DNA of 41,324 bases from a virus (lineage: Duplodnaviria > Heunggongvirae > Uroviricota > Caudoviricetes), in the IMG/VR virus record IMGVR_UViG_2671180439_000007, positions 1 to 41,324 of that record. One strand, 5' to 3'. Under the pieces are notes generated by a model that searched no databases, was not told the DNA's origin, and saw nothing but the letters and a program-made list of their open reading frames with translations. Below, one piece after another: positions 4-30,494 of this stretch (the first letter of the stretch is position 1; every line of letters starts with the position of its first letter). Made by a program: the position numbers and the translations under genes.

Positions 4-291
4 GTGTTTAAACGGTTAAATAAGAGAATGATTTTAATAAATAAATACACCCCTCCAACGCAGGAAGATTTAGCCAGACTGAAATCCGCACTAAATTACT
101 CCGGAAACCAAATGGCAGGGCTCGCAGGTGTAGCCAGCGATAGCCAATGGCGGAAATACACTGGCGGAGAGAGCCCCAGGGTAATGTCAAGACACATACT
201 GTTTTATATTGCAGCTCAGCTTGTTCTGTCTGATGAGCAACTTAACAATGTAATAAATAAAATGCGCGATATTGGCGCGGAGATAAAATAA
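4..291 (+). CDS. Small XRE-like HTH protein, possibly 5'-truncated by the window edge
   Basis: ORF begins at a GTG at position 4 with no upstream stop in the window; residues LKSALNYSGNQMAGLAGVASDSQWRKYTGG resemble an XRE helix-turn-helix; its TAA stop overlaps the next ATG (TAATG). Confidence 0.4.
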   Translation: MFKRLNKRMILINKYTPPTQEDLARLKSALNYSGNQMAGLAGVASDSQWRKYTGGESPRVMSRHILFYIAAQLVLSDEQLNNVINKMRDIGAEIK

Positions 292-1358
292 TGCTTGGTG
301 TTATCAGGTTCTTCCTCGCTTCATGTGTAATATACTTCCACCTAGCCGGTCAGTCTCCCGATTTGGGATTGTATGCAGTAAACTGCTTTTACGTAATCAG
401 CGGCTATTTAATTACGTTGATATTACACAGAACATATCACTTTGAATTTTCAAGATTTGCATTAAACAGATTTCTAAGATTATACCCCACGTACTGGTTT
501 TCTTGTTTTGTTGGTTTTATTGTAATTTCGACAAGCCAATCACCAACAATATTTCACCCATCATATGGGGTAAACTTTTCATTTGACGAGGCTCTATCTA
601 ACGTATTAATGATTCCTTGGGCATTTTACGCAGATAATATAATGACTTCGCCATTCCATAGTTTTGGTATTAACCCACTTCACTTTGACGGATATATGTT
701 CCGCATTGTTACTTCAAGTTGGTCAGTTGCTGTTGAAATAGTTTGTTATTTTCTTTTATGGGCTTTTATTGCGAGAAGTTATAAAACAGCATTACTAACA
801 ATGTTTTTAAGCATTGGTTACCACTGGTATTCTATTAAAAACGTAGACTCCCTGGTGGTCATTTACTCGCCATTTATCGCGGCCCTTCTCCCTTTCTCAA
901 TTGGTGCGCTGGGGTACTTTATATCCAACAAACTAAAAGAAGCAAATATCAAAATTTGTTCAAATGGAATAACACAAATACTATCATGCGCTATTTTTAT
1001 TATATTATTTACATCCAACTGGTATTTAAATTACATCAATAAAAACTCATTAGCATCGGTTAACTATTACGTCAACAACATAATAGCTTTGCTTGCCATA
1101 ATAAGCTTGCATTCAACCACGCCGCCTAGAAAAATAGAGAATGTGTGCAAAACTCTTGGTGATTTATCATACCCTATGTTTTTGTGTCAATTCTTTATGG
1201 GATTGGTTGCATGGGAGGCAACTGGCCACACGAATGTGACAAGGGGGCTAACGATATTTATAATCGGCTATGCCCTATCCTTTGCATTTGGATTGATAAC
1301 CATAAAGTTAATTGATCGACCAGTCTCGAAATTAAGAAATAAAATTCGGCAAACATAG
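291..1358 (+). CDS. Acyltransferase family 3 integral membrane protein (O-antigen acetylase-like, candidate lysogenic conversion gene)
   Basis: 355 aa, highly hydrophobic multi-pass protein with N-terminal pattern typical of acyltransferase_3 proteins; AT-rich relative to phage backbone; located at the prophage end after the tail fiber. Confidence 0.65.
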   Translation: MLGVIRFFLASCVIYFHLAGQSPDLGLYAVNCFYVISGYLITLILHRTYHFEFSRFALNRFLRLYPTYWFSCFVGFIVISTSQSPTIFHPSYGVNFSFDEALSNVLMIPWAFYADNIMTSPFHSFGINPLHFDGYMFRIVTSSWSVAVEIVCYFLLWAFIARSYKTALLTMFLSIGYHWYSIKNVDSLVVIYSPFIAALLPFSIGALGYFISNKLKEANIKICSNGITQILSCAIFIILFTSNWYLNYINKNSLASVNYYVNNIIALLAIISLHSTTPPRKIENVCKTLGDLSYPMFLCQFFMGLVAWEATGHTNVTRGLTIFIIGYALSFAFGLITIKLIDRPVSKLRNKIRQT

Positions 1359-4040: not shown

Positions 4041-4479
4041 TATTCAGTTGCTCCCATAGCCAGAAGAATTTGAACTCCTGCCAGTCCCCCGCCGGCGGCA
4101 AATACCGGATGATGAGGTTCAGCCTGTTCGGGAAAACAATCTCTGACTGAGCCTCTATCGCTGCTGCAATACCATCCGACTTCATCCAGGCCAGAGCCTC
4201 TTCGGCGTAATCTTCAGCTCTCATCGCCACTTCGCGCGTCAGTTTTTCACGCCGCAGTAGCCACAGCCTTGAGCCAATATTCCGATCGTTGTCCAGATCC
4301 CCCCACCAGCCGCGGCGGTCAGTTCCTTCATAATCATCATCAGCGCGCGCCAGTCCGTCAGTAAACAAACTGATAATAATGGCCGTGTGCATATCATTCT
4401 CAGATGTCAGTACGCCGTTACCGGTTTGCCAGTCAGCATGAATGGCATCCACATCCCAGAATGAGGAAATATCACTCAT
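4030..4479 (-). CDS. Mu gp46-like baseplate protein
   Basis: 149 aa; overlaps neighbours by 4-11 nt; synteny with Mu gp45-gp47. Confidence 0.65.
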   Translation of the reverse strand: MSDISSFWDVDAIHADWQTGNGVLTSENDMHTAIIISLFTDGLARADDDYEGTDRRGWWGDLDNDRNIGSRLWLLRREKLTREVAMRAEDYAEEALAWMKSDGIAAAIEAQSEIVFPNRLNLIIRYLPPAGDWQEFKFFWLWEQLNNAI

Positions 4480-5057
4480 ACCTGACTCTCTGTTTTTTCG
4501 CTTGTGATCGTGCTATCGCCGGACTGAACTTCTTTAACGTCATGGTCATGATCGTTGTGAGCATCCCGCAGCGCTTTGAGCGTTGAATTGTTCGTCTCGC
4601 AGTTATCGATGATGTCACCCGTCACCAGGAGTTTGGGGGTAACCAGCTTTACCTGTTCCGTTGCCGTCGCGGTGATGTTTCTGGCATTGTTGATCTCTAC
4701 ATCTTTGCCTTTCGCATCAATGAAAATTCCCGCCTCAGTCAGATGAATATTCATCCCCTGCTGGTTATAGACCACCGTTTCGCCTGGCTTAAGCCCGGTA
4801 TGCCGGTAGCTTTGATGGTTAGAGGCAATGACGACGGGACTGGAGCGGTCCCCGCCGAGAAAGGCAATAACCACATCCGATCCCGCCGGCAACCCCGATG
4901 AAAAACCAAAATCAGAGAGCCGTGGGGCGCTGGCCACTTCCAGCGGAGTCTGGTACTGGATTTCCTGCACAACCCCGCTATCTTTCTGCGTGGTAATACG
5001 GCCAATTCCCAGCATGCCGGCGATGCGCGTGGCCGATTTCTTTAAATTTTGATTCAT
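4476..5057 (-). CDS. Baseplate assembly protein V / spike (Mu gp45-like)
   Basis: 193 aa; synteny; C-terminal HNDHDHD metal-binding-like motif typical of spike tips. Confidence 0.65.
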   Translation of the reverse strand: MNQNLKKSATRIAGMLGIGRITTQKDSGVVQEIQYQTPLEVASAPRLSDFGFSSGLPAGSDVVIAFLGGDRSSPVVIASNHQSYRHTGLKPGETVVYNQQGMNIHLTEAGIFIDAKGKDVEINNARNITATATEQVKLVTPKLLVTGDIIDNCETNNSTLKALRDAHNDHDHDVKEVQSGDSTITSEKTESQV

Positions 5058-6139
5058 TGGTTTAGTCCGGGTATTTGCTGGTAGAAAGCATAAGGCTGGA
5101 CAGCGAAAGCCTCCGGGGGCATCAGATAAAGGCGCGCATGGGTGCCGTCACTGTCTCTGATATAAGTCACCTCTGCGATAAGCAATTCGGTGTCAGGCAG
5201 CTGCAGACTCGGGATGTTGACCGGGATAAGCGTATTCGGCTCCCATAATTTCCCGGATTTATCGCGCCAGGAATCAATCGTCACCGTTAACTGACGGGAA
5301 CGGCCGTATCGGCGGTTCATCTCCCAGTCAATCGCTCGCTGAGCCTGTTGTGAAGCCATCAGTGTACTTTCAACAATAATGATCCGTTTTCGGTAACGCA
5401 TACTGGCCGCCTCAGGATCGCGGGCCGTCGCCAGCGTCACCGAATCATAAGCCGTATCTGGCGAGAATCCTGCAATCGGCGAAATGCTCATCGATACGCC
5501 GACGTAATCAGAAAAGCGGTCAGCCATCGAACGGCGGTAATAAGCCTGTTCGATATTTACCCCTTCTGCGATACCGCTGGCCGCGCGCTTTGTCCCCACC
5601 CTGGTCAGAAATAAGTTACCGTCAGGCTGATCGTAATAAAGCAATGCCGACCAGCGGGAGACACGATCAAGTATTTCCTGTGGCGATTCCCCCCAGTTCA
5701 GGGAAAATTGCGGAACTTTCACCAGATCATCAACGTCTGTACTTACGCCAATGTTGTAATGGGATGCGAGGCGGGAGGCAATATCAAGCGCATTACTGTT
5801 ATTGATGACGTTATTTGGCCATTCAGCAGAGCAATCAACGAGATCTGCGCACTTACTGCGGCCTGAGGCTCTGACTTCATGGCGCGAACGGGAAATAGCA
5901 GGCGACCAGTCATCAACATACCCCGTCACTACCAGGTCGTTACCAAGCTTTACCTGACAAGGCATCCCTTCCTTTACCAGCTGCTTCTGGTCACTTCCCG
6001 GAAAATAATCCATCAGTCCCAGGTCAAAATCGGAGGGAAAACGCTCAATGCCACGGGTCACCCGCACAGAGTCCCATCCTTCAATGATTTTTCCGCCCAC
6101 TGTCAGGGAGACAATATCCTGATCATTATCCGTACTCAT
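5054..6139 (-). CDS. Mu gp44 (P)-like tail/baseplate hub protein
   Basis: 361 aa; synteny between DNA-circularization-N-like gene and gpV-like gene. Confidence 0.6.
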   Translation of the reverse strand: MSTDNDQDIVSLTVGGKIIEGWDSVRVTRGIERFPSDFDLGLMDYFPGSDQKQLVKEGMPCQVKLGNDLVVTGYVDDWSPAISRSRHEVRASGRSKCADLVDCSAEWPNNVINNSNALDIASRLASHYNIGVSTDVDDLVKVPQFSLNWGESPQEILDRVSRWSALLYYDQPDGNLFLTRVGTKRAASGIAEGVNIEQAYYRRSMADRFSDYVGVSMSISPIAGFSPDTAYDSVTLATARDPEAASMRYRKRIIIVESTLMASQQAQRAIDWEMNRRYGRSRQLTVTIDSWRDKSGKLWEPNTLIPVNIPSLQLPDTELLIAEVTYIRDSDGTHARLYLMPPEAFAVQPYAFYQQIPGLNQ

Positions 6140-21707: not shown

Positions 21708-22218
21708 TCAGCAGTTCTGGCTGCGTCACCTGCATGATGTGCTCATGCTCGAGCTCCAGAACGCGCTTCTCTTTCTTCCGCTCGTTCATCAACCGGCTGC
21801 CGATTGTGCCTTTCAGCTTTGAGCGCGTTTCTTTGATGGCGTAGCGATGCTGCAATTCTTCACCCATCGCCATGCGCCGGTTTAGCTGCTCGGCCATCCA
21901 GTTGAAGGCATTGATGTAACACTCCTTCACTGCGGCAGCTGTTTTGCCAGTGAATCCCATCACTAGCATCATGCATCCGTCGCGGGTGATGTTATACATA
22001 GGCTGAACATCGCCATTTTTATCAATGAAATCAATGGGCGCAAAATTGCGCTGGGTGAAGTCATCGGAGCATTTCAGGTTACGTATGGCACGCAAAACGT
22101 CTTTGTGTCGCTTGCCAAAGTAATCCGCCACCTTGAGTGATGTGGTGATTATCTTGTTGTCGAGGGTCGTGACCATTTCGCGGAAGTCGAAGGCCGGAAT
22201 AACTGACGGATTATTCAT
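21700..22218 (-). CDS. Rha family phage regulatory protein
   Basis: Start set at ATG 22218 (MNNPSVIP); motif KVADYFGKRHKDVLRAIRNL characteristic of Rha/antirepressor N-terminal domains. Confidence 0.6.
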   Translation of the reverse strand: MNNPSVIPAFDFREMVTTLDNKIITTSLKVADYFGKRHKDVLRAIRNLKCSDDFTQRNFAPIDFIDKNGDVQPMYNITRDGCMMLVMGFTGKTAAAVKECYINAFNWMAEQLNRRMAMGEELQHRYAIKETRSKLKGTIGSRLMNERKKEKRVLELEHEHIMQVTQPELLIG

Positions 22219-22361
22219 AGCGTCTTTACCTTTTAGAAAGTGAGCCTGTCTCACAGAAAAGCCGCCCGAGAGAGGTCGCCACCTATAACGGCATTTCTCA
22301 GGCTCACTTACTGAAAGGCTCTCGTTAATATGCGCGTGAGATGCGCATTTACTGCGGACAT

Positions 22362-22385
22362 AAAAAAGCCCCGCATCGCAAGGCT
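22362..22385 (-). terminator. Candidate intrinsic terminator downstream of Rz
   Basis: Minus strand CCTTGCG-AT-GCGGGG hairpin (with GU pairs) followed by TTTTTT. Confidence 0.35.
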
Positions 22386-22416
22386 CATTAAATGGACTTT
22401 GTGATTTGCAAAAAAA

Positions 22417-22854
22417 TTATTTCAGGCATTGCGTCCTGATGTATTCCTGCAGGTAGTTGACCTGTGCGGTTATCTTGTCGATTCCACTTCGGAGACGGTA
22501 ATAATTGAGTTCAGCATCTGCTGTAAGTCCTGGGCTTTCTCCATCGCCCATGCCGCCGGCTCCGGTCGTTGACTTTGCACAGGTGGCGGCGACTTGCAGG
22601 CGCTTACGACCAGCAGAAACATCAGCACGGAGACTTTCGATAGTCGCGTTAGCATCAGCAAGCTCCTTTGTGTATCTGGCGTCGAGTTCTGCTACATCAC
22701 GTTGACGCTTCTGCATGTCAGCGATAGTAGATGCGGCTTTGTCGCGCTGCTCTTTGTAGGCGATGGCGTTATCACGGTAATGATTAACAGCCCATGACAG
22801 GCAGACGATGATGCAGATAACCAGAGCGGAGATAATCGCGGTTACTCTGCTCAT
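22417..22854 (-). CDS. Rz i-spanin
   Basis: 145 aa, N-terminal TM helix, coiled-coil body; overlaps endolysin gene end by 4 nt. Confidence 0.75.
22470..22661 (-). CDS. Rz1 o-spanin embedded in Rz in another frame
   Basis: Signal peptide with lipobox VSAC followed by proline-rich [11 protein letters not shown]. Confidence 0.65.
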
Positions 22855-23327
22855 ACCTCAATCTCTCTGACCGTTCCGCCAGCTTCTTTGAATTTTGCAA
22901 TCAGGTTGTCAGCCTTATGCTCGAACTGTCCATAACCAGCGCCCGGCAGTGAAGCCCAGATATTGCTGCAACGGTCGATTGCCTGACGGATGTCACCGCG
23001 ATCAATCATTAGTAAAGCGCCACGCTCCTTAATCTGCTGCAATGCAACAGCGTCCTGGCTTTTAGGAGAGAAGTCTGTCAGCCCTAACTGCTTGCGGTAA
23101 GCATCCCACCAGCGTGAAAGAAGTTGATAACGGCCTGCGGCTGTTGATTTGAGTTTCGGGTTTAGCGTGACAAGTTTTCGAGGGTGATCGGAGTAATCAG
23201 TGAAGAGTTCGCCACCGACAATAACGTCATAACCGTGGTTACGTGTCGGTTGTCGCCCGTTATCCGTTCCTTCTGACCATGCCACCATATCAAGGAAAGC
23301 TTTACGCTGGGAATTTAGTACCTGCAT
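22851..23327 (-). CDS. Endolysin, lambda R-type lytic transglycosylase
   Basis: 158 aa; near-identical in pattern to lambda R as recalled ([47 protein letters not shown]). Confidence 0.9.
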
Positions 23328-23330
23328 AAA

Positions 23331-23666
23331 TTACTCCTTCGAGCTACCAAACTTGTTACCGATTACTCTCATTGCAGCCCCACGAATAGCATCGACACCG
23401 ATCAGCCCCACCCCACCACCAATGGCAACAGAAAGCGATTTAGGCCATCCGACATACTCAAGCGCGGATGCAAAGGTCAACGTCAGAGCGCCACATAGCA
23501 AAATCTCGAGCGTTTTTCGCTTCCAGCCACCACCACCGCCAAAATAGGCGATGCGCAAACCAGCCATAACAATCGACATAATCACTGCGCCCAGCGGCGT
23601 ATCTCCACGCCACCAGCTCTGAAACAACTCCAGCCAGTCCGGCCAGGTATTTGGGTTATGAGGCAT
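23331..23666 (-). CDS. Holin (class I, lambda S-like)
   Basis: Start set at internal ATG 23666 (MPHNPNTW); three hydrophobic segments, charged C-terminus; immediately upstream of endolysin. Confidence 0.6.
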   Translation of the reverse strand: MPHNPNTWPDWLELFQSWWRGDTPLGAVIMSIVMAGLRIAYFGGGGGWKRKTLEILLCGALTLTFASALEYVGWPKSLSVAIGGGVGLIGVDAIRGAAMRVIGNKFGSSKE

Positions 23667-23710
23667 TTCGTCATCTCTCACCTCGCGATATTTGCGGGTG
23701 CTGTGTTGGA

Positions 23711-23735
23711 AATAAAAAGGCCACGCAACGTGGCC
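23711..23735 (-). terminator. Strong intrinsic terminator between methyltransferase and holin
   Basis: Minus strand GGCCACG-TTG-CGTGGCC perfect 7-bp stem followed by TTTTTATTT. Confidence 0.55.
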
Positions 23736-23742
23736 ACCAGAA

Positions 23743-24795
23743 TTATTTCCCCACCAGTTCACTTACCTCTTTCACCGTCTGATTAAACCGCTCTGACTCA
23801 AGTTCAACACCTAACGCCCGACGCCCCAGCGCCATTGCCGCTTTTATTGTGGAACCGGATCCCATAAAAAAATCAGCAACCAGATCACCGGGTCGACTAC
23901 TGGCATTGATTATTTGCCTGAGCATATCCGCCGGTTTCTCACACGGATGTTTACCCGGGTAGAACTGAACGGGTTTATGCATCCAGACATCGGTATAAGG
24001 CACGGAGACTGATACGGAGAAATAGCGCCGGAGAGATTTAAACTCATCCAGCAATTCAGAATATTTGCGATTCAGTGAATCATAAGATGCCACCAGCTGG
24101 TGGTGTGGTTGTTCCAGTTGTTGTTCCTGAAACTTCTCTGCCGCTATACGGGAAAACAGTGCCTGTAACTTCCGATAGTCAGCCTCATTCGGCAACTGCC
24201 ACTGACTGGCACCAAACCAGTGGGAAACCATATTTTTCTTACCTGTGGCTTCGGCAATTTGTTTTGCCGTTATACCCAGTTCGGCACGAGCATCCCTGAA
24301 ATACGATATCAGCGGTGCCATTATGTGCTGTTTGAGTTCCCTTTCTTTTGCCGCATAGCCGTCACTTTTGCCGCGATATGGCCCCTGGTAATGTTCAGCA
24401 AACAGAACGCGCTCTGTGGCAGGAAAATATGCGCGCAGACTTTCTTTATTACACCCATTCCAACGTCCGGACGGCTTCGCCCAGATGATATGGTTAAGCA
24501 CGTTGAAACGTTCACGCATCATGATCTCAATATCAGATGCCAGGCGATGCCCACAGAACAGGTAAAGGCTTCCGGCAGGTTTCAACACCCGCCAGAACTG
24601 GGCCAGACAGTGGTCCAGCCACTTAAGGTAATCTTCGTCCCCTTTCCACTGATTGTCCCAACCGTTGGGTTTCACCTTGAAGTAAGGCGGATCGGTAACA
24701 ATCAGGTCAATGGAATCATCAGGCAGGGACTGAATAAAATGCAGGCAATCAGCGTTGATTAAATCAATACTGTTTATTTTTACAGTGTTTTTCAT
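23743..24795 (-). CDS. DNA methyltransferase, beta-class amino-MTase (N6-adenine or N4-cytosine)
   Basis: 350 aa; DPPY motif (LIVTDPPYF) precedes C-terminal SAM motif FFMGSGST. Confidence 0.8.
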   Translation of the reverse strand: MKNTVKINSIDLINADCLHFIQSLPDDSIDLIVTDPPYFKVKPNGWDNQWKGDEDYLKWLDHCLAQFWRVLKPAGSLYLFCGHRLASDIEIMMRERFNVLNHIIWAKPSGRWNGCNKESLRAYFPATERVLFAEHYQGPYRGKSDGYAAKERELKQHIMAPLISYFRDARAELGITAKQIAEATGKKNMVSHWFGASQWQLPNEADYRKLQALFSRIAAEKFQEQQLEQPHHQLVASYDSLNRKYSELLDEFKSLRRYFSVSVSVPYTDVWMHKPVQFYPGKHPCEKPADMLRQIINASSRPGDLVADFFMGSGSTIKAAMALGRRALGVELESERFNQTVKEVSELVGK

Positions 24796-24944
24796 GGATC
24801 AGTAAGCGTAACTCTGGTAGGCTCACTCTGCTTTTGCGCTAAAGCAGTGGGCCGTGGTTCGCTTGTGACCAGTAAGCATGAGCGAATGGCTGGCAGGTGC
24901 TACCAACACCCACCAGCCGCCCATTTTCACAAATTAAAAGTCCT

Positions 24945-25139
24945 TCATTGCTGAAGGCGTCTGTAACAGCCGAACTGGTAATCTGCCAGCCCCGCCATAA
25001 CCAACTGGGTCAGTATTAACTGACAGCGTTCGCGTGAAAGATATGTGTTTTGTGCAATCTCCCCGACTGTTGCTGGTTCGATGCTTAATTCATTAAAAAC
25101 AACTTTCGCCGTTTCTGTCATATCTTGCTGTTTTAGCAT
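24945..25139 (-). CDS. Small winged-helix-like DNA-binding protein
   Basis: 64 aa from ATG 25139 with AAGGA SD; segment ATVGEIAQNTYLSRERCQLILTQLVMAGL resembles an HTH; divergent from DUF262 gene. Confidence 0.4.
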   Translation of the reverse strand: MLKQQDMTETAKVVFNELSIEPATVGEIAQNTYLSRERCQLILTQLVMAGLADYQFGCYRRLQQ

Positions 25140-25261
25140 GTCTTTTTTCCTTCTAGTTAACATGACATACCAATAACTCTTGTCTAAAAAGCCAGCAAGA
25201 TAAAAAGTCAGTATTCACGACCACCAGCGTGTTTACCGTACTGCACCAGGTTTACAGGTAC

Positions 25262-25287
25262 AAAAAAACCCGCTCGACGGCGGGTTT
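25262..25287 (-). terminator. Intrinsic terminator (minus-strand orientation) upstream of DUF262 gene
   Basis: Minus strand CCCGC-CGTCGA-GCGGG stem-loop followed by TTTTTTT. Confidence 0.45.
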
Positions 25288-25332
25288 AAGTTGTGTGGCG
25301 AAGTAACCACTCTTAACACAATACAATACTTT

Positions 25333-25361
25333 TTGCGTACGCGTTATAGTTTTCTTACAAT
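25333..25361 (+). promoter_or_regulatory. Putative sigma70 promoter of the DUF262-HEPN operon with embedded GCGTACGC palindrome
   Basis: TTGCGT(-35) 17-nt spacer TACAAT(-10); AGGA SD before ATG 25388. Confidence 0.4.
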
Positions 25362-25387
25362 CAACTTTCAATTAAAGGAACGAAAAC

Positions 25388-26548
25388 ATGACTACACTCA
25401 AAGAACTCAAAGAAGAGCTTGCTCAGATACAAGATGAACACGCTAAGAACAGAAAAAAGGCTGAAATTGCAGCTTTAACCGCTTCCGCTGACAATGAAAT
25501 CAGACTCGCTCAGAGAAACATTGGATACAATGTACGTGAGTGGACCGTTGAAGTCATTATTCAAAAGTATGGTGATAATATTGAAAATGACAAAAACGAG
25601 CTTTTTATTCCAGATTATCAACGTGATTACAAGTGGGATACAAAAACAGCCTCTCGCTTTATAGAAAGTATTCTATTAGACTTTCCAATACCTTACCTTT
25701 ACATTGCTGATGTATTTAATGAAGACCCTGAATTAGATGGTAGGGTAGAAATCATTGATGGTTCACAACGGATACGCTCTATTTATTATTTTTGGAACGA
25801 CCAATTTGAGTTAAAGGATTTGAAAGAGCTTAAAAGTTTAGAAGGTTTCAAATTTTCAGATCTTTTAGCTAGCCGCCAAAGAAGATTTTTAAGAGCTTCA
25901 CTAAGATTTATTGAGTTGAAAGGTGATGTTGAGGAACAACATAGAAGAGATTTATTTGAAAGGATCAACTCAGGTGTTAAAAGATTAGAAGCGATGGAAG
26001 TGAGGCATGGCTCAGATGCTGCTACCTCAATGTTCTATAAAGATGTTGTGACCCCATGCTCAACAAACTCACTTTTTTCCCAACTAGCTCCATTATCAGA
26101 CCGGAAACGGTCGAATGGCGATCATCGTGAGTTAGTTTTGAGATTTTTTGCATATTTAAATGATTTAGAAAACTATAAGGGATTTGTCCGTCCCTTTATT
26201 GATAATTATTTAAATGAACAAGCAGCAGCTGTGACTACTCAACAAGATGTTGATAGTTTTAAACATGATTTTGAAATGATGCTTGCTTTTGTTGCTACCC
26301 ATTTCCCTATTGGCTTTAAAAAGACCGCAACAAGTAAAACCACCCCACGAGCCAGATACGAAGCCATTGCCGTGGGAACTGCACTTGCATTAAAAACTAA
26401 CCCACAACTCCAGAGTCCAGCCGTACCTGTAGGTGAATGGCTATTTGAAGAGGAATTTGAAACACTTGTTACTGCTGATAGTGCAAACAATACCAGCCAG
26501 CTAAAAAACAGAATCTTTTACGTTAAAAATAAGTTGTTAGGGATTTAA
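25388..26548 (+). CDS. DUF262 (ParB/GmrS-like) domain protein
   Basis: 386 aa; N-terminal IPDYQRDYKW and IDGSQRIRSI motifs match DUF262 hallmarks; AT-rich codon usage. Confidence 0.75.
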   Translation: MTTLKELKEELAQIQDEHAKNRKKAEIAALTASADNEIRLAQRNIGYNVREWTVEVIIQKYGDNIENDKNELFIPDYQRDYKWDTKTASRFIESILLDFPIPYLYIADVFNEDPELDGRVEIIDGSQRIRSIYYFWNDQFELKDLKELKSLEGFKFSDLLASRQRRFLRASLRFIELKGDVEEQHRRDLFERINSGVKRLEAMEVRHGSDAATSMFYKDVVTPCSTNSLFSQLAPLSDRKRSNGDHRELVLRFFAYLNDLENYKGFVRPFIDNYLNEQAAAVTTQQDVDSFKHDFEMMLAFVATHFPIGFKKTATSKTTPRARYEAIAVGTALALKTNPQLQSPAVPVGEWLFEEEFETLVTADSANNTSQLKNRIFYVKNKLLGI

Positions 26549-26550
26549 AA

Positions 26551-27240
26551 ATGAGTCTAATTGATTTACGAGATGAATATGAAGAAAGAGCAAGAGACAT
26601 TATGGAACTGCTTTCTCTTGCATCATCTATAGAGATTCATACTCAGCAGTTAGATCCGCAAGCGCATCAAGATGAAATAGAATCTAATATCCTAAGGGTA
26701 AATATTTTAAAATCATCCGTTCATATGATGCTATATAATCAAGTTGAAAATACTGCCAGAGGTTGCATCGAGTCAATTTATGATCATTTACAAGATAATG
26801 ATGTGAATTACGCATCACTCAGGGAGAAGCTTCAAGTAAATATATTACATAGAATTGTTTCAGATAATGAAACAGGGCAATCCCTTTATAAAAAGATAGG
26901 CACTGACATTTCCAAAAGAATAATTTCAGCCTCATTGAATATTCGTAAAGAATTCAATGGTAATGTTTGCAAGCCTGTATTACAAAAAATAACGCAGGCT
27001 TACGGAATAACTATCGCAAACTCACCTGAATGTAGAAATGGTATTGACTTAGACTTGCTTAAGGATATCAGAAACGAACTCGCGCATGGAAGTACTAGCT
27101 TCTCTAAAAAGGGGCAAATTGACCCCTTAGAAGAAGTTAAGTCTAGAGCAGAGAGAGTTGATCTATATCTTCGTTTATTAATAAACTCAACTGAAGATTA
27201 TATTATCTCTAACGGATATTTATCCCCTCAACATGCCTAA
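26551..27240 (+). CDS. HEPN-like nuclease-family protein (Rx4H motif)
   Basis: 229 aa; C-terminal DIRNELAHGS fits HEPN R-x4-H; starts 3 nt after DUF262 stop. Confidence 0.65.
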   Translation: MSLIDLRDEYEERARDIMELLSLASSIEIHTQQLDPQAHQDEIESNILRVNILKSSVHMMLYNQVENTARGCIESIYDHLQDNDVNYASLREKLQVNILHRIVSDNETGQSLYKKIGTDISKRIISASLNIRKEFNGNVCKPVLQKITQAYGITIANSPECRNGIDLDLLKDIRNELAHGSTSFSKKGQIDPLEEVKSRAERVDLYLRLLINSTEDYIISNGYLSPQHA

Positions 27241-28249
27241 CAAATGTTCTCCCTATTACTTGGCCAATTATAGGGGGAACAGCATTACCAATCATCGTTC
27301 CTAACTTTTGGAATGAAAAAGGCGTATTTTTTCCAATAAATTTATAATCCATAGGAAAAGATTGTAAAATAGCAGCTTCACGCAAAGTTATTGCTCTATT
27401 TTGCTCAGGATGTCCGAATCGCCCATTACCATATCCATAACATTGGGTAGTTATTGTAGGACTAGTATCGTCCCAAACCATCCGTCCATAAACACTTTTA
27501 TAGGTAGCACCTGAATGCTTTTTATGGCAATCCGCTCTAATTTCTTCAGGCCAATCATCCCACGTACCACCTGGTAAAGAGTGCAAGATTCGTTTAAGGT
27601 TAATATCCCTTAATTTAGGCGAACGATGCAATGGATCACTTTCGAGTTTCTCCCCTGCACCTATTTTTGGCAACTGACCAATAGCATCCTTTACTGTAAC
27701 TTTACGGCTTACTTTTTTTTGATCAAGGCTGATTGGCCCCAATATGGACCCAATTAGAATTAATCTACGTCTATTTTGAGGCAAGCCATACTCGGAACAT
27801 TTTACAACGTCGTACCACAGATGATACCCAAGAGTCTTTAATACACTAACAAACTCTTCAAAAACCTTATGATTTCTAAGTTGAGGAACATTTTCCATAG
27901 TCACAAGCTCTGGCATGACATCACTTACAATCCTCTGAAACTCAGATAAAAGACGCCACTTTGTATCATCTTTTCTGCTATTTGGATTACGATACTTGGA
28001 AAACGGTTGGCAAGGGGCACAGCCTGCAAGTAATCTAATATTTCCTTCCTTGAACATAGCAGACACATCGCTGGATTGCAGTTCAGTAACTGACTGGTTA
28101 ATGAACTTCGTTAAGGGATTATTGCTCTCAATAGCGAAACGGCAGGACTCATCAATATCAATGCCATGAGAAACTTCAATCCCGGCTTTTTTTAGCCCAA
28201 AAGTTAAGCCCCCTGCGCCACAAAAAATGTCTACTGCTTGAATGTTCAC
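27209..28249 (-). CDS. DNA (cytosine-5)-methyltransferase
   Basis: 346 aa, GTG start with GGAG SD; motifs FCGAGG (I), PCQPFS (IV), ENV (VI), QNRRR (VIII); 3' end overlaps HEPN gene 3' end by 32 nt. Confidence 0.9.
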   Translation of the reverse strand: MNIQAVDIFCGAGGLTFGLKKAGIEVSHGIDIDESCRFAIESNNPLTKFINQSVTELQSSDVSAMFKEGNIRLLAGCAPCQPFSKYRNPNSRKDDTKWRLLSEFQRIVSDVMPELVTMENVPQLRNHKVFEEFVSVLKTLGYHLWYDVVKCSEYGLPQNRRRLILIGSILGPISLDQKKVSRKVTVKDAIGQLPKIGAGEKLESDPLHRSPKLRDINLKRILHSLPGGTWDDWPEEIRADCHKKHSGATYKSVYGRMVWDDTSPTITTQCYGYGNGRFGHPEQNRAITLREAAILQSFPMDYKFIGKNTPFSFQKLGTMIGNAVPPIIGQVIGRTFVRHVEGINIR

Positions 28250-28328
28250 AAGATTCTCCGTTACTTTACCCTGGTATTATATACACATAAAAGTTGGGAA
28301 AGTAGAATGATTTTACATAGCACTTAAC

Positions 28329-28682
28329 TCATTGTATTAAATAAAAAAATGACAAGCATCCATCAATAAACCCCATAGCTGTTTGCATATCTTTTCGAAC
28401 TGTTCCGTCTGAACATTTCCGCTTTTTTGCAATTGTACGGAGCGAAATGCCAACAACAAAGTGAGCAATTATCAGCTCATACTCTGCCGGCTTGTATTTA
28501 CGCAACCTAGCGACACAACCGTCTATTATGATGCCCTCATCATCATCGCACTGAATCCGGGACTTTCTGCCATGAGGTAAAAGCCACTTGAAGCCAGCAG
28601 CTACCGGTTGCCAGTCCACACCACTGTTTTCTGCAGCAGCCCATGCCCCCCAGCGGTCCAAAACTTCATACATATCACGCAT
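28329..28682 (-). CDS. Late antiterminator Q (933W/82-type small Q family)
   Basis: Start set at MRDMYEVLDRWGAWAA; pattern WGAWAA...AAGFK...KSR.QCDDD...CSDG matches recalled 933W-type Q. Confidence 0.65.
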   Translation of the reverse strand: MRDMYEVLDRWGAWAAAENSGVDWQPVAAGFKWLLPHGRKSRIQCDDDEGIIIDGCVARLRKYKPAEYELIIAHFVVGISLRTIAKKRKCSDGTVRKDMQTAMGFIDGCLSFFYLIQ

Positions 28683-28699
28683 CAACTTTCTCCACAAAA

Positions 28700-29695
28700 T
28701 CAGGCCAGCACGCCAATTGCCAGCGCACGATCGATAAAACGAAATATCAGCTCCAGCTGGGAGCCATACATCTCTTCAAATGCCACGGTATCTGCATGCA
28801 GCTCGTCGTGATGCTTTCTGCACAAAGGCAACACAAAGAGGTCATGCGCTTTTGTACCCATTCCACCCTGACCGTGACCTATCAGGTGGTGGGGATCATC
28901 AGCAGGCTTTCCACAACATGCACACGGCTGTGTCTTAACCCAGCGCGTGTACTTTTTATTAACCCAGCGGCGACGTTTTGGGCGTAACATAAAAGACTCC
29001 GGCGACTCCGGATCCACTTCCAGCGCCAGCACTTTTTTCGCTTTATCCTGGATGATGCTGGTGGCAGGAACCGAAGGCACAAGGTCACTTTCCCGGGTGA
29101 CAGACGGCACAACAGGCTTCGGTAATCTCAGTGCCTTACGGGCTGCACTTTCCGGTAAGGCATCCGCCAGGTCATTACGAACCAGCCACCAGCACAGTTC
29201 CGGCATTGTCACAACGTGACTATCATCAAAACCGAGATCCCGACGCACGACAGACAACACCCAGCGGGCACAGTTATCCGTTGCCATTGATTCCAGCCGT
29301 TCCGTGAACTGATCGCGCAGCTGGTTATCGCAGTGCCAGCACAGACGGATTGCGCCCGGCGCGTGTCGCATTGTGGTCATGTTCTCGCTGTGCCAGTCGG
29401 AATGAGGCCACTGACAGCCTTTTTCACGAAGTAACCAGCTTTCAAGACATTCCACGCCACCAGCACGACGGATCACTGCCTCATTGCGGAACACGGCCTG
29501 AACGGCAGGATCATCCGCCAGCGGTTGTGATGCCGCCGGAACGGCACCACTGGCGAAAGATGAATAACGTTCCGGCTCAGGCTCCAGCAGGACACGCCCC
29601 TGCATAAACAGGGGCATCAGCTCTGAACCTGGTCTGAACAATACGATCCCCATACGCGGGGCAATTTCAGGGGTCAGTAGTGCTCTCACGGTCAC
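28700..29695 (-). CDS. DUF968 domain protein
   Basis: 331 aa; C-terminal CACCGKPADDPHHL...CRKHHDELH cysteine/histidine cluster typical of DUF968 lambdoid proteins. Confidence 0.65.
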   Translation of the reverse strand: MTVRALLTPEIAPRMGIVLFRPGSELMPLFMQGRVLLEPEPERYSSFASGAVPAASQPLADDPAVQAVFRNEAVIRRAGGVECLESWLLREKGCQWPHSDWHSENMTTMRHAPGAIRLCWHCDNQLRDQFTERLESMATDNCARWVLSVVRRDLGFDDSHVVTMPELCWWLVRNDLADALPESAARKALRLPKPVVPSVTRESDLVPSVPATSIIQDKAKKVLALEVDPESPESFMLRPKRRRWVNKKYTRWVKTQPCACCGKPADDPHHLIGHGQGGMGTKAHDLFVLPLCRKHHDELHADTVAFEEMYGSQLELIFRFIDRALAIGVLA

Positions 29696-29696
29696 C

Positions 29697-30494
29697 TCAA
29701 TGAACGGTATCGAGCAGCTTTAACAGCTCAGGGAATCTGGATTCGAAGAAATGCGGCTGCGTCTCGCGCGGATTTGCAGGACTGGTGATGTTCTTGCCGA
29801 ACATGCAGCCTTTCGCTGTCAGCGACCAGAATTTTTTGATGTTGTTAATCGCGGTACGGCTGTATCGTTCGCGTTGTTCAACGATCCCCAGCTTCGCCAT
29901 CTGGTGATATGCCTGATTAGCCGTCAGGCGGATACCATACTGCTTCAGCAGTGCACTCAGCGACAGCGTCGGGCGGCTTGAGCCATCAGGCGCGTCAGCA
30001 GGTGCATCAATGGCATAGCGCGGTGCCAGATTCGGTAAGCCAACAGCCTCCTGGAGTTTCTGACAGGCACCAAGCACTGAAGAGTTAGACAGATTTAATT
30101 CCCGGCGCATAAAGTCCAGCAGAATCACACCAGCCTTCATCTTGTCAGCAGCCTGTCCGGATAATTTTTCCGGTGCGCTGGTTACCATGTCGAAAGTACG
30201 GATCACCTTAAGATGGAATGACGGGCTTATCCACATTGCATAGGCATACACCAGTTCTTTGCAGACATACGTCCCCTGGTTATTTCCGCCACGAATAACG
30301 TTAACTGGCTCTATATTGACCGAGTTGCAAATCTGCAACTCGCTTATTAAACGTTCAGTTTGCTCATTGCGGAGCCAGAATGCAGGCTTATGCTTATCCA
30401 GAGAACCGGCAGCCCTGTGAAGATCGTTCAGGCTGTAACGACCATAAGCATCACGACGAACTTCAATACCATCAATGACCATCAGATTATTCAT
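29697..30494 (-). CDS. KilA-N domain protein (putative antirepressor-like)
   Basis: 265 aa; N-terminal IDGIEVRRDAYGRYSLNDLHRAAG pattern of KilA-N. Confidence 0.65.
   Translation of the reverse strand: MNNLMVIDGIEVRRDAYGRYSLNDLHRAAGSLDKHKPAFWLRNEQTERLISELQICNSVNIEPVNVIRGGNNQGTYVCKELVYAYAMWISPSFHLKVIRTFDMVTSAPEKLSGQAADKMKAGVILLDFMRRELNLSNSSVLGACQKLQEAVGLPNLAPRYAIDAPADAPDGSSRPTLSLSALLKQYGIRLTANQAYHQMAKLGIVEQRERYSRTAINNIKKFWSLTAKGCMFGKNITSPANPRETQPHFFESRFPELLKLLDTVH

Follow-up and report, generated by a model that had tools for sequence, protein, structure and literature searches.

The window considered here is a 41,324-nucleotide (nt) stretch of DNA, positions 1 to 41,324 of the IMG/VR virus record IMGVR_UViG_2671180439_000007 (Caudoviricetes). 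Between the genes for the holin and the antiterminator Q, it carries a three-gene cassette that we propose to be a compact restriction-modification (RM)-like defense module. An open reading frame (ORF) check of the window found three intact ORFs, encoding a DUF262 protein, a HEPN protein, and a C5-cytosine DNA methyltransferase, at the places given by the initial annotation. The DUF262 gene (25388 to 26548, plus strand) encodes a putative sensor of 386 amino acids (aa) containing the motifs IPDYQRDYKW and IDGSQRIRSI. The HEPN gene (26551 to 27240, plus strand), which starts 2 nt after the DUF262 stop codon, encodes a stand-alone MAE_28990-type protein of 229 aa that contains the motif RNELAH and is a putative nuclease effector. 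The methylase gene (27209 to 28249, minus strand; GTG start, 346 aa), the putative self-marking partner, is convergent with the HEPN gene, and by the gene coordinates the two 3' ends overlap by 32 nt (27209 to 27240). Coordinates and translations thus reproduced the three ORFs, their motifs, and the overlap described earlier. The initial annotation had also described the cassette as antisense to late transcription. By strand, only the DUF262 and HEPN genes, on the plus strand, oppose the Q and lysis genes; the methylase gene lies on the minus strand, as does Q.

As the initial annotation had suggested, the cassette is AT-rich and unlike its flanks: its G+C content is 0.368, compared to 0.519 ± 0.030 in 647 other 3-kb segments (z of about -5), with values of 0.37, 0.34, and 0.40 for the DUF262, HEPN, and methylase genes, respectively. 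This composition supports the view that the three genes arrived as one low-GC unit. An Rfam search of positions 22000 to 30000 gave no match.

A Pfam profile search agreed with all three domain calls. The DUF262 protein matched GmrSD_N/DUF262 (PF03235) at 6e-26. Among the PADLOC profiles, it matched NsnA at 7.7e-45 and PD-T4-2_A (PDLC04027) at 5.9e-27, the latter over profile positions 52 to 322 of 363. Its relatives reached 3e-67 with the NsnA profile, aligned at about positions 30 to 378 of 385, and the PD-T4-2_A profile matched 15/15 DUF262 family members nearly full length. Because of these nearly full-length matches, we consider the protein to be of the DUF262 + ParBDB type, the C-terminal part being a helical domain of the DNA-binding type. 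The motifs QRxxxW (residues 78 to 83), DGSQR (124 to 128), and FERIN (190 to 194; FxxxN) are invariant in the homologues. An AlphaFold2 model of the protein had a mean predicted local distance difference test score (pLDDT) of 80, and a Foldseek search with the whole model returned SspE (E = 0.03) and ParB as best matches, both weak, which is probably due to the multi-domain geometry. The PADLOC profiles of GmrSD-like systems (HEC-05/06, SspE, and Orf5) matched only the short N-terminal region holding the DUF262 motifs. Sequences with about 30% identity to DUF262 residues 7 to 191 were also found in lytic T4-like (Krischvirus-type) phages, including Phi1, kvi, Whisky, and MIZ2/3/6 (tblastn H70 to H80), and these homologues could be decoys or counter-defense factors.

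The HEPN protein matched HEPN_MAE_28990 (PF18737) at 2.8e-17, above the gathering score, and HEPN_RiboL-PSP at 2e-8. Residues R174 and H179, which form the Rx4H motif, are invariant across 14 lineages, implying that the HEPN domain is catalytically active. The Pfam search found no DUF1524 or HNH profile match in the DUF262 or the HEPN protein, in line with the earlier proposal that a HEPN domain stands here where GmrSD has its DUF1524 nuclease. Clustered at 50%, the HEPN family has about 1,285 representatives, 688 of them at E ≤ 1e-10, and nearly all representatives are stand-alone proteins of about 210 to 250 aa.

The methylase matched PF00145 at 2.7e-54, TIGR00675 (dcm) at 1.8e-34, and the PADLOC profiles MTase_II and DISARM DrmMII at 1.2e-88 and 7.7e-85. 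The motifs FCGAGG, PCQ (C80), ENV, QNRRR, and GNAVP (motifs I, IV, VI, VIII, and X) are all present, and judged by its sequence the protein therefore appears to be, as expected of a type II RM system, a methyltransferase with all catalytic motifs. Its relatives in the PDB (DNMT1, M.HaeIII, and 3g7u) matched within the catalytic core only.

To describe the linkage of the three genes, homologues of DUF262 and HEPN were looked up as exact proteins, GTDB genomes and IMG/VR were scanned with patterns, and phage records were searched with tblastn. The ORFs of the loci gathered in this way were searched with iterative profiles. The peptide patterns used on genome contigs were narrow, and the 4 loci they returned give no prevalence estimate. 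All 53 informative loci with a HEPN relative (48 + 5 loci) harbor a DUF262 gene directly upstream of the HEPN gene and an adjacent C5-methylase gene. The triad was found in prophages of the Escherichia coli, Enterobacter, Klebsiella, and Yersinia type, in a Vibrio integrase island, in Affinibrenneria, Psychromonas, and Pseudomonas sp. M47T1, in a Bradyrhizobium metagenome-assembled genome, in Acinetobacter and Psychrobacter prophages, in Moraxella Mcat phages, and in the P2-like phage P24B2.

Two gene orders were observed. In the convergent one, DUF262 and HEPN face the methylase as in the window; ten lineages show 3' overlaps of 4 to 65 nt, and one (L013) has an 11-nt gap instead. In the other, the genes form an operon in the order methylase, DUF262, HEPN, all in the same direction, and the junctions range from a 4-nt overlap to a 4-nt gap. 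The three genes thus form one unit in which the methylase is obligately linked, and this linkage survives rearrangement. It follows that the methylase is, as had been suspected, a partner rather than a bystander. It is also co-inherited, with 47 to 50% identity to the window copy even where DUF262 is at 32 to 38% and HEPN at 20 to 26%. The linked C5-methylase of L013 (Psychromonas sp., 4324 to 5439) is only 28% identical to that of the window, compared to 41 to 55% in comparably or more diverged lineages, lacks a match to the GN[AS]V pattern, and does not overlap the HEPN gene. From its sequence, it looks like a replacement by a different C5-methylase within the triad, which would mean that the methylase function was retained.

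Several relatives lie in informative surroundings. McrBC restricts DNA carrying 5-methylcytosine (m5C), and in Pseudomonas sp. M47T1 (L010, 2003 to 4827 and 6001 to 8850) the triad adjoins an McrBC system, with which the target of the methylase must therefore be compatible. A metagenomic locus with the co-directional order (L055, 1 to 8729) is a classic defense island, in which the triad is flanked by an EcoO109I-type RM system on one side and by a gene for Cas12a (Cpf1) on the other. In prophages of the Acinetobacter/Psychrobacter type (L056, 2026 to 4699; L057, 1422 to 4729; L058, 516 to 3136), the DUF262 and HEPN genes immediately follow, in the same direction, a gene for a CI-like repressor with helix-turn-helix and peptidase S24 domains. 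The rexAB genes of phage λ hold the same kind of position next to cI, and by analogy this position would allow expression in the lysogen. In P24B2 (LR595873.1), the triad adjoins the replication gene A where the record ends, a site which may correspond to the P2 defense hotspot (PMC9519451). The methylase of this Peduovirus (L049, 1994 to 3041) is split by a frameshift in the PGG(D/T)W region into pieces of 136 aa and 234 aa, while DUF262 and HEPN are intact; the split reflects a sequencing error or else a natural knockout of the methylase. Some E. coli records (P0011, P0012, P0016; L059, L060) carry a 192-aa HEPN ending in SFSKRGKLTP. We rejected these alleles as real truncations, and hence as a natural experiment, because the frameshift falls in an A5G4 run (27106 to 27114 of the window) and the assemblies concerned have 6 to 7 indels per 3.4-kb cassette; they are probably sequencing or assembly errors.

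The insertion site was defined by comparison with sister phages. Phages vB_EcoS-569R4, mEp460_4F5, and Stx2a_1447 share Q (28329 to 28697, minus strand; PF06530, 2.6e-45) at about 93% DNA identity but carry different cargo. Homology to these phages ends about 20 nt before the Q stop codon (position ~28350), the last ~20 nt of Q being variable, and resumes in the left flank at about 25346. From the points at which homology to the sister phages stops, we set the bounds of the insert at about 25347 to 28349. This ~3.0-kb segment is also the extent of the low-GC cassette; the initial annotation had placed the cassette at 25164 to 28328, an interval that differs from the insert at both ends. The left anchor, outside the cassette, contains a strong intrinsic terminator hairpin (25266 to 25287, minus strand; 8 stem pairs and a T-run in the terminator scan), which is conserved in 569R4, in mEp460_4F5, and in Ayreon, where it is annotated as a terminator. 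It is followed in the left flank by a 72-aa ORF (24945 to 25163, minus strand), which gave weak winged-helix-like matches, and by a second DNA methylase, of the N6/N4 class (23743 to 24795, minus strand; PF01555, 2.3e-42), located between the cassette and the holin gene (23331 to 23762; PF05106). Both the 72-aa ORF and the N6/N4 methylase belong to the conserved phage backbone (Ayreon, 569R4, mEp460_4F5, and Stx2a_1447), so that with the C5-methylase of the cassette the prophage encodes two methylases.

Between the same anchors, the sister phages hold one or two antisense genes, encoding 182 and 286 aa in 569R4 (L051, 1852 to 3247), 308 aa in mEp460_4F5 (L052, 2348 to 3274), and 179 and 343 aa, annotated as hypothetical, in Stx2a_1447 (L053, 1771 to 3334). 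A Pfam scan of the 569R4 and mEp460_4F5 cargo proteins gave no match, and we regard the unannotated antisense cargo of the sister phages as defense candidates. Because the cargo differs while the anchors are shared, the pocket directly after Q is a cargo hotspot, as the initial annotation had presumed. Its likening of this site to that of the Stx toxins is approximate only, because the stx genes of Stx2a_1447 sit farther downstream, past the N6-methylase and tRNA genes.

Of 5,426 complete E. coli genomes, 107 (~2%) carry, on prophages, a near-identical cassette that matches over the full length at 99.8% identity. It was also found in 34 IMG/VR viral contigs and is absent from 50,697 deposited phage genomes. 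Elsewhere in the window, a second low-GC patch (291 to 1358, plus strand; G+C of about 0.36 to 0.38) encodes a 355-aa membrane acyltransferase (Acyl_transf_3, 1.6e-21). This gene adjoins a glycine-rich, tail-fiber-like gene and looks like an O-antigen-modifying (serotype-converting) cargo gene.

Regarding expression signals, we predict a promoter upstream of DUF262 (25333 to 25361, plus strand) consisting of TTGCGT (25333 to 25338), a 17-nt spacer, and TACAAT (25356 to 25361). It scores 8/12, below the threshold of the promoter scan, and was read from the sequence. Cassettes of E. coli, of Klebsiella, and of the Enterobacter and Yersinia types all keep this block in front of DUF262, and the half comprising the -35 element and an 8-bp palindrome also lies within the anchor shared with phages that carry other cargo. 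This palindrome, GCGTACGC (25335 to 25342), overlaps the -35 element and the spacer and is GC-rich within an AT-rich context. It is kept in every enterobacterial cassette and may serve as an operator or as a site sensitive to methylation. In the region between Q and the methylase (28250 to 28328, minus strand), a TATAAT (28281 to 28276) and a GGAG ribosome-binding site (28259 to 28256) precede the GTG start codon, and both are shared by the cassettes of E. coli, Klebsiella, and the Enterobacter type as conserved elements; the promoter scan called no minus-strand promoter reaching 9/12 upstream of the methylase. A minus-strand candidate at 25371 to 25343 (TTGAAA, 17 nt, TATAAC) was rejected as a conserved element, its -35 being cassette specific and its -10 not conserved in the sister phages. 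In a search for the late promoter pR' and its qut site, which were not located, promoter-like sites were not enriched (14 found versus 10.8 ± 3.8 expected). A comparison of the phages with this Q showed no sequence conserved immediately after the gene, which in these phages is directly followed by a hairpin terminator. A Q-specific site in the left flank is unlikely because Ayreon, which has a different Q, shares that flank.

Taken together, we read the cassette as a compact three-gene RM-like defense module carried as prophage cargo, in which m5C would be the self mark, DUF262 the sensor, and HEPN the effector, and we give this reading a probability of roughly 55%. The C5-methyltransferase would mark the DNA of the lysogen and its prophage at its target sites. 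The DUF262/ParB-like protein, a full-length homologue of NsnA and PD-T4-2_A, would act as a nucleoside triphosphate (NTP)-dependent DNA sensor. The HEPN protein, probably translationally coupled to DUF262, would be the nuclease effector, most likely an RNase using R174 and H179. Sensing of DNA without the m5C mark, such as incoming phage DNA, would then switch on HEPN and block the infection, possibly at the cost of the cell.

We favor this reading because the linkage of the methylase is obligate and withstands rearrangement, because the catalytic motifs of all three proteins are intact and conserved, because the genomic contexts are of the defense type, and because the literature offers precedent: the DUF262 sensors of GmrSD, BrxU, and SspE, the last of which cooperates with a modification module of its host; the protection against T4 by PD-T4-2; and PD-lambda-5, seen by its authors as a compact RM and abortive infection system. 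Hotspots, repressor-adjacent positions, and defense-island neighbors are the contexts that speak for a putative anti-phage role. The domain identities, the catalytic motifs, the linkage, and the mobile-element and defense contexts are direct observations; the direction of the methylation logic, the HEPN substrate, and any anti-phage activity are what we infer.

A more far-reaching reading, which we put forward tentatively and at clearly less than even odds, is that such cassettes represent a widespread "RNA-arm" class of RM systems, in which m5C marks self, the DUF262 NTPase reads methylation, and unmarked DNA turns on a stand-alone HEPN RNase. Discrimination between self and non-self would be epigenetic, as in RM systems, while restriction would consist of RNA cleavage or abortive infection instead of DNA cutting. 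It is possible that GCGTACGC within the predicted promoter adds a further layer by making expression of the effector sensitive to methylation or to a regulator.

Four points weigh against an RM-like module. First, the HEPN model is of moderate confidence (pLDDT of 68). Second, PD-T4-2 works when cloned without an adjacent methylase (PMC9519451), so that a DUF262-HEPN pair need not be methylase gated, nor toxic without a methylase. Third, the P24B2 frameshift, if real, argues against a lethal self-targeting of unmethylated DNA. Fourth, DUF262 domains are modification sensors and NTPases in GmrSD, BrxU, and SspE (PMC10952713, PMC12065111), and these known sensors are triggered by a modification rather than by the lack of one.

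In an alternative that we consider unlikely, DUF262 and HEPN would form a type IV-like sensor and effector that depend on modification and, like PD-T4-2 and GmrSD, are triggered by modified phage DNA, for instance, DNA containing hydroxymethylcytosine or glucosyl-hydroxymethylcytosine. The methylase would be a separate passenger, for example, an orphan protecting the phage genome from host restriction. In its favor, the DUF262 domains of GmrSD, BrxU, and SspE recognize modified DNA, PD-T4-2 emerged from a selection with T4 and works without a methylase in the clone, and phage-borne orphan methylases are common, the window itself carrying a second one, the N6/N4 enzyme. However, a passenger methylase would not persist in 53/53 loci across phyla, nor would it survive a change of gene order or join one operon with junctions of 1 to 4 nt. 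Additionally, m5C sensing of the BrxU type would make an m5C methylase self-toxic.

We regard as similarly improbable that the DUF262/ParB-like protein is itself a restriction enzyme that nicks or cuts DNA at unmethylated sites, while HEPN plays an accessory part, be it as a scaffold, as a regulatory subunit, or as a second-line RNase. The cassette would then be essentially a type II-like RM system with an add-on. ParB is treated as an endoDNase domain of RM systems in the survey of Anantharaman, Makarova, Burroughs, Koonin & Aravind 2013 (Biol Direct 8:15), and ParB/Srx proteins can nick DNA (PMC12839542). The PADLOC type II restriction enzyme profile PDLC03418 matched the window protein at 7e-4 and the N-terminal DUF262 domain of 7/15 family members, with a best value of 1.5e-13. 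The likeness to a type II endonuclease is limited to this partial match, no known DNase fold being identified among the cassette proteins. Against this alternative, the match spans only profile positions ~6 to 168 of 372, those DUF262 enzymes that have been studied have their nuclease activity in DUF1524 and use DUF262 as the NTPase and sensor, and the invariant Rx4H motif implies that HEPN itself is catalytically active.

Least probable in our view is that the module is mainly a selfish, toxin-antitoxin-like addiction element, stabilizing the prophage or island by killing upon loss of the element or of methylation, with defense incidental or absent: RM systems are generally known to behave as addiction modules, the cassette is always on mobile elements, HEPN proteins often serve as the toxins of toxin-antitoxin systems, and putative antitoxins of the ParA-like kind accompany the sister family MAE_18760 (Anantharaman 2013), but the cassette occurs at sites of validated defense genes (possibly the P2 hotspot, next to a CI-like repressor, beside McrBC, and with RM and Cas12a), and the nearest relatives for which experiments exist are genuine anti-phage systems. 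Addiction and defense roles are not mutually exclusive.

If methylation gating is true, the RM-like module would link the epigenetic self-marking of RM systems with abortive infection by a HEPN nuclease, and a function would be given to a family of about 1,300 cluster representatives that is found on prophages of ~2% of complete E. coli genomes. Beyond the cassette, the analysis delimits a hotspot for cargo that immediately follows Q and is shared by a group of lambdoid and Stx phages.

In concept, the proposed module would resemble PrrC-EcoprrI, an RM-linked anticodon nuclease with a type Ic RM partner and the T4 Stp peptide as its trigger, in that RM methylation is coupled to an RNase effector which phage attack sets free. 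The proteins are unrelated, however, and the type Ic partner and the Stp trigger set PrrC-EcoprrI apart.

By the PADLOC v2 profiles, the cassette would not be called as any named system. With GmrSD, BrxU, and SspE, it shares an N-terminal DUF262 NTPase/sensor with the motifs QRxxxW, DGxQR, and FxxxN, SspE being the top, though weak, structural match. These enzymes have DUF1524, whereas the cassette has no DUF1524 or HNH domain and a separate HEPN effector; it is therefore not GmrSD. SspE works together with a host DNA-modification module (PMC12065111), but its partner is a phosphorothioation module and that of the cassette an m5C methylase.

Menshen (NsnABC; Millman 2022; Gao 2025, PMC12065111) provides the best PADLOC match, NsnA, and has the same DUF262 + ParBDB architecture. 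Methylases lie beside some Menshen operons, and the authors ask whether DUF262 might target unmodified DNA (PMC12065111). Unlike Menshen, the cassette has neither the NsnB ABC ATPase nor the NsnC inPIN nuclease within it or next to it, and has HEPN directly downstream instead; no ATPase was found in the cassette or in its relatives. Because NsnB and NsnC are not present, the cassette is not a Menshen system.

PD-T4-2 (Vassallo 2022, E. coli ECOR65) is an operon of two genes, for a DUF262 and a HEPN protein. Its activity against T4 was validated, also by deleting it from the native strain, and its HEPN protein matches RiboL-PSP and MAE_28990 in HHpred (PMC9519451). We compared it (RCO39066.1; ECOR65 contig QOYX01000002) through the PADLOC profiles PD-T4-2_A and PD-T4-2_B. 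Both systems have the DUF262 + HEPN pair, and the window protein matches PD-T4-2_A, although NsnA scores higher. The PD-T4-2 clone, however, consists of two ORFs only, without a methylase, which span 1540 bp compared to 1853 bp in the cassette. The PD-T4-2_B profile did not match the window HEPN at E ≤ 0.1 and matched 1/14 family members (2.4e-4). Since PD-T4-2_B is unmatched and a methylase always accompanies the pair, we do not assign the cassette to PD-T4-2.

PD-lambda-5 (Vassallo 2022), from an ECOR7 prophage, likewise combines ParB-like, HEPN, and DNA methyltransferase functions. It gives broad protection, was read by its authors as a compacted RM and abortive infection system, and has a methylase active enough to require an mrr-deleted host (PMC9519451). 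Its ParB and HEPN parts are fused, however, the ParB part matches ParBc and not DUF262, and the methylase is a D12-class N6-adenine enzyme. Because the genes of the cassette are separate and its methylase is of the C5-cytosine type, it is not PD-lambda-5, and no PD-lambda-5 profile is among the PADLOC matches listed for the window proteins.

The initial annotation had presented the module as undescribed, which does not stand: the neighborhood was tabulated in 2013, all three proteins already bear PGAP names in 107 complete E. coli genomes, and PD-T4-2 and PD-lambda-5 were validated in 2022 (PMC9519451). A full-text literature search found no paper studying the DUF262-HEPN-methylase triad experimentally. 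Table 1 of Anantharaman 2013 lists a neighborhood of MAE_28990 HEPN, ParB nuclease, and DNA methylase, and the cassette has all the features of this class, namely, a stand-alone MAE_28990 HEPN with Rx4-6H, an adjacent ParB/DUF262, and an adjacent DNA methylase. The difference is that the class is one line of a comparative-genomics table, without a system name, gene order, host range, mechanism, or experiment. By its sequence, the cassette thus appears to belong to a known, computationally predicted class and to stand apart from the named systems PD-T4-2, Menshen, GmrSD, and PD-lambda-5, while the hotspot location and the two gene orders are documented in this analysis.

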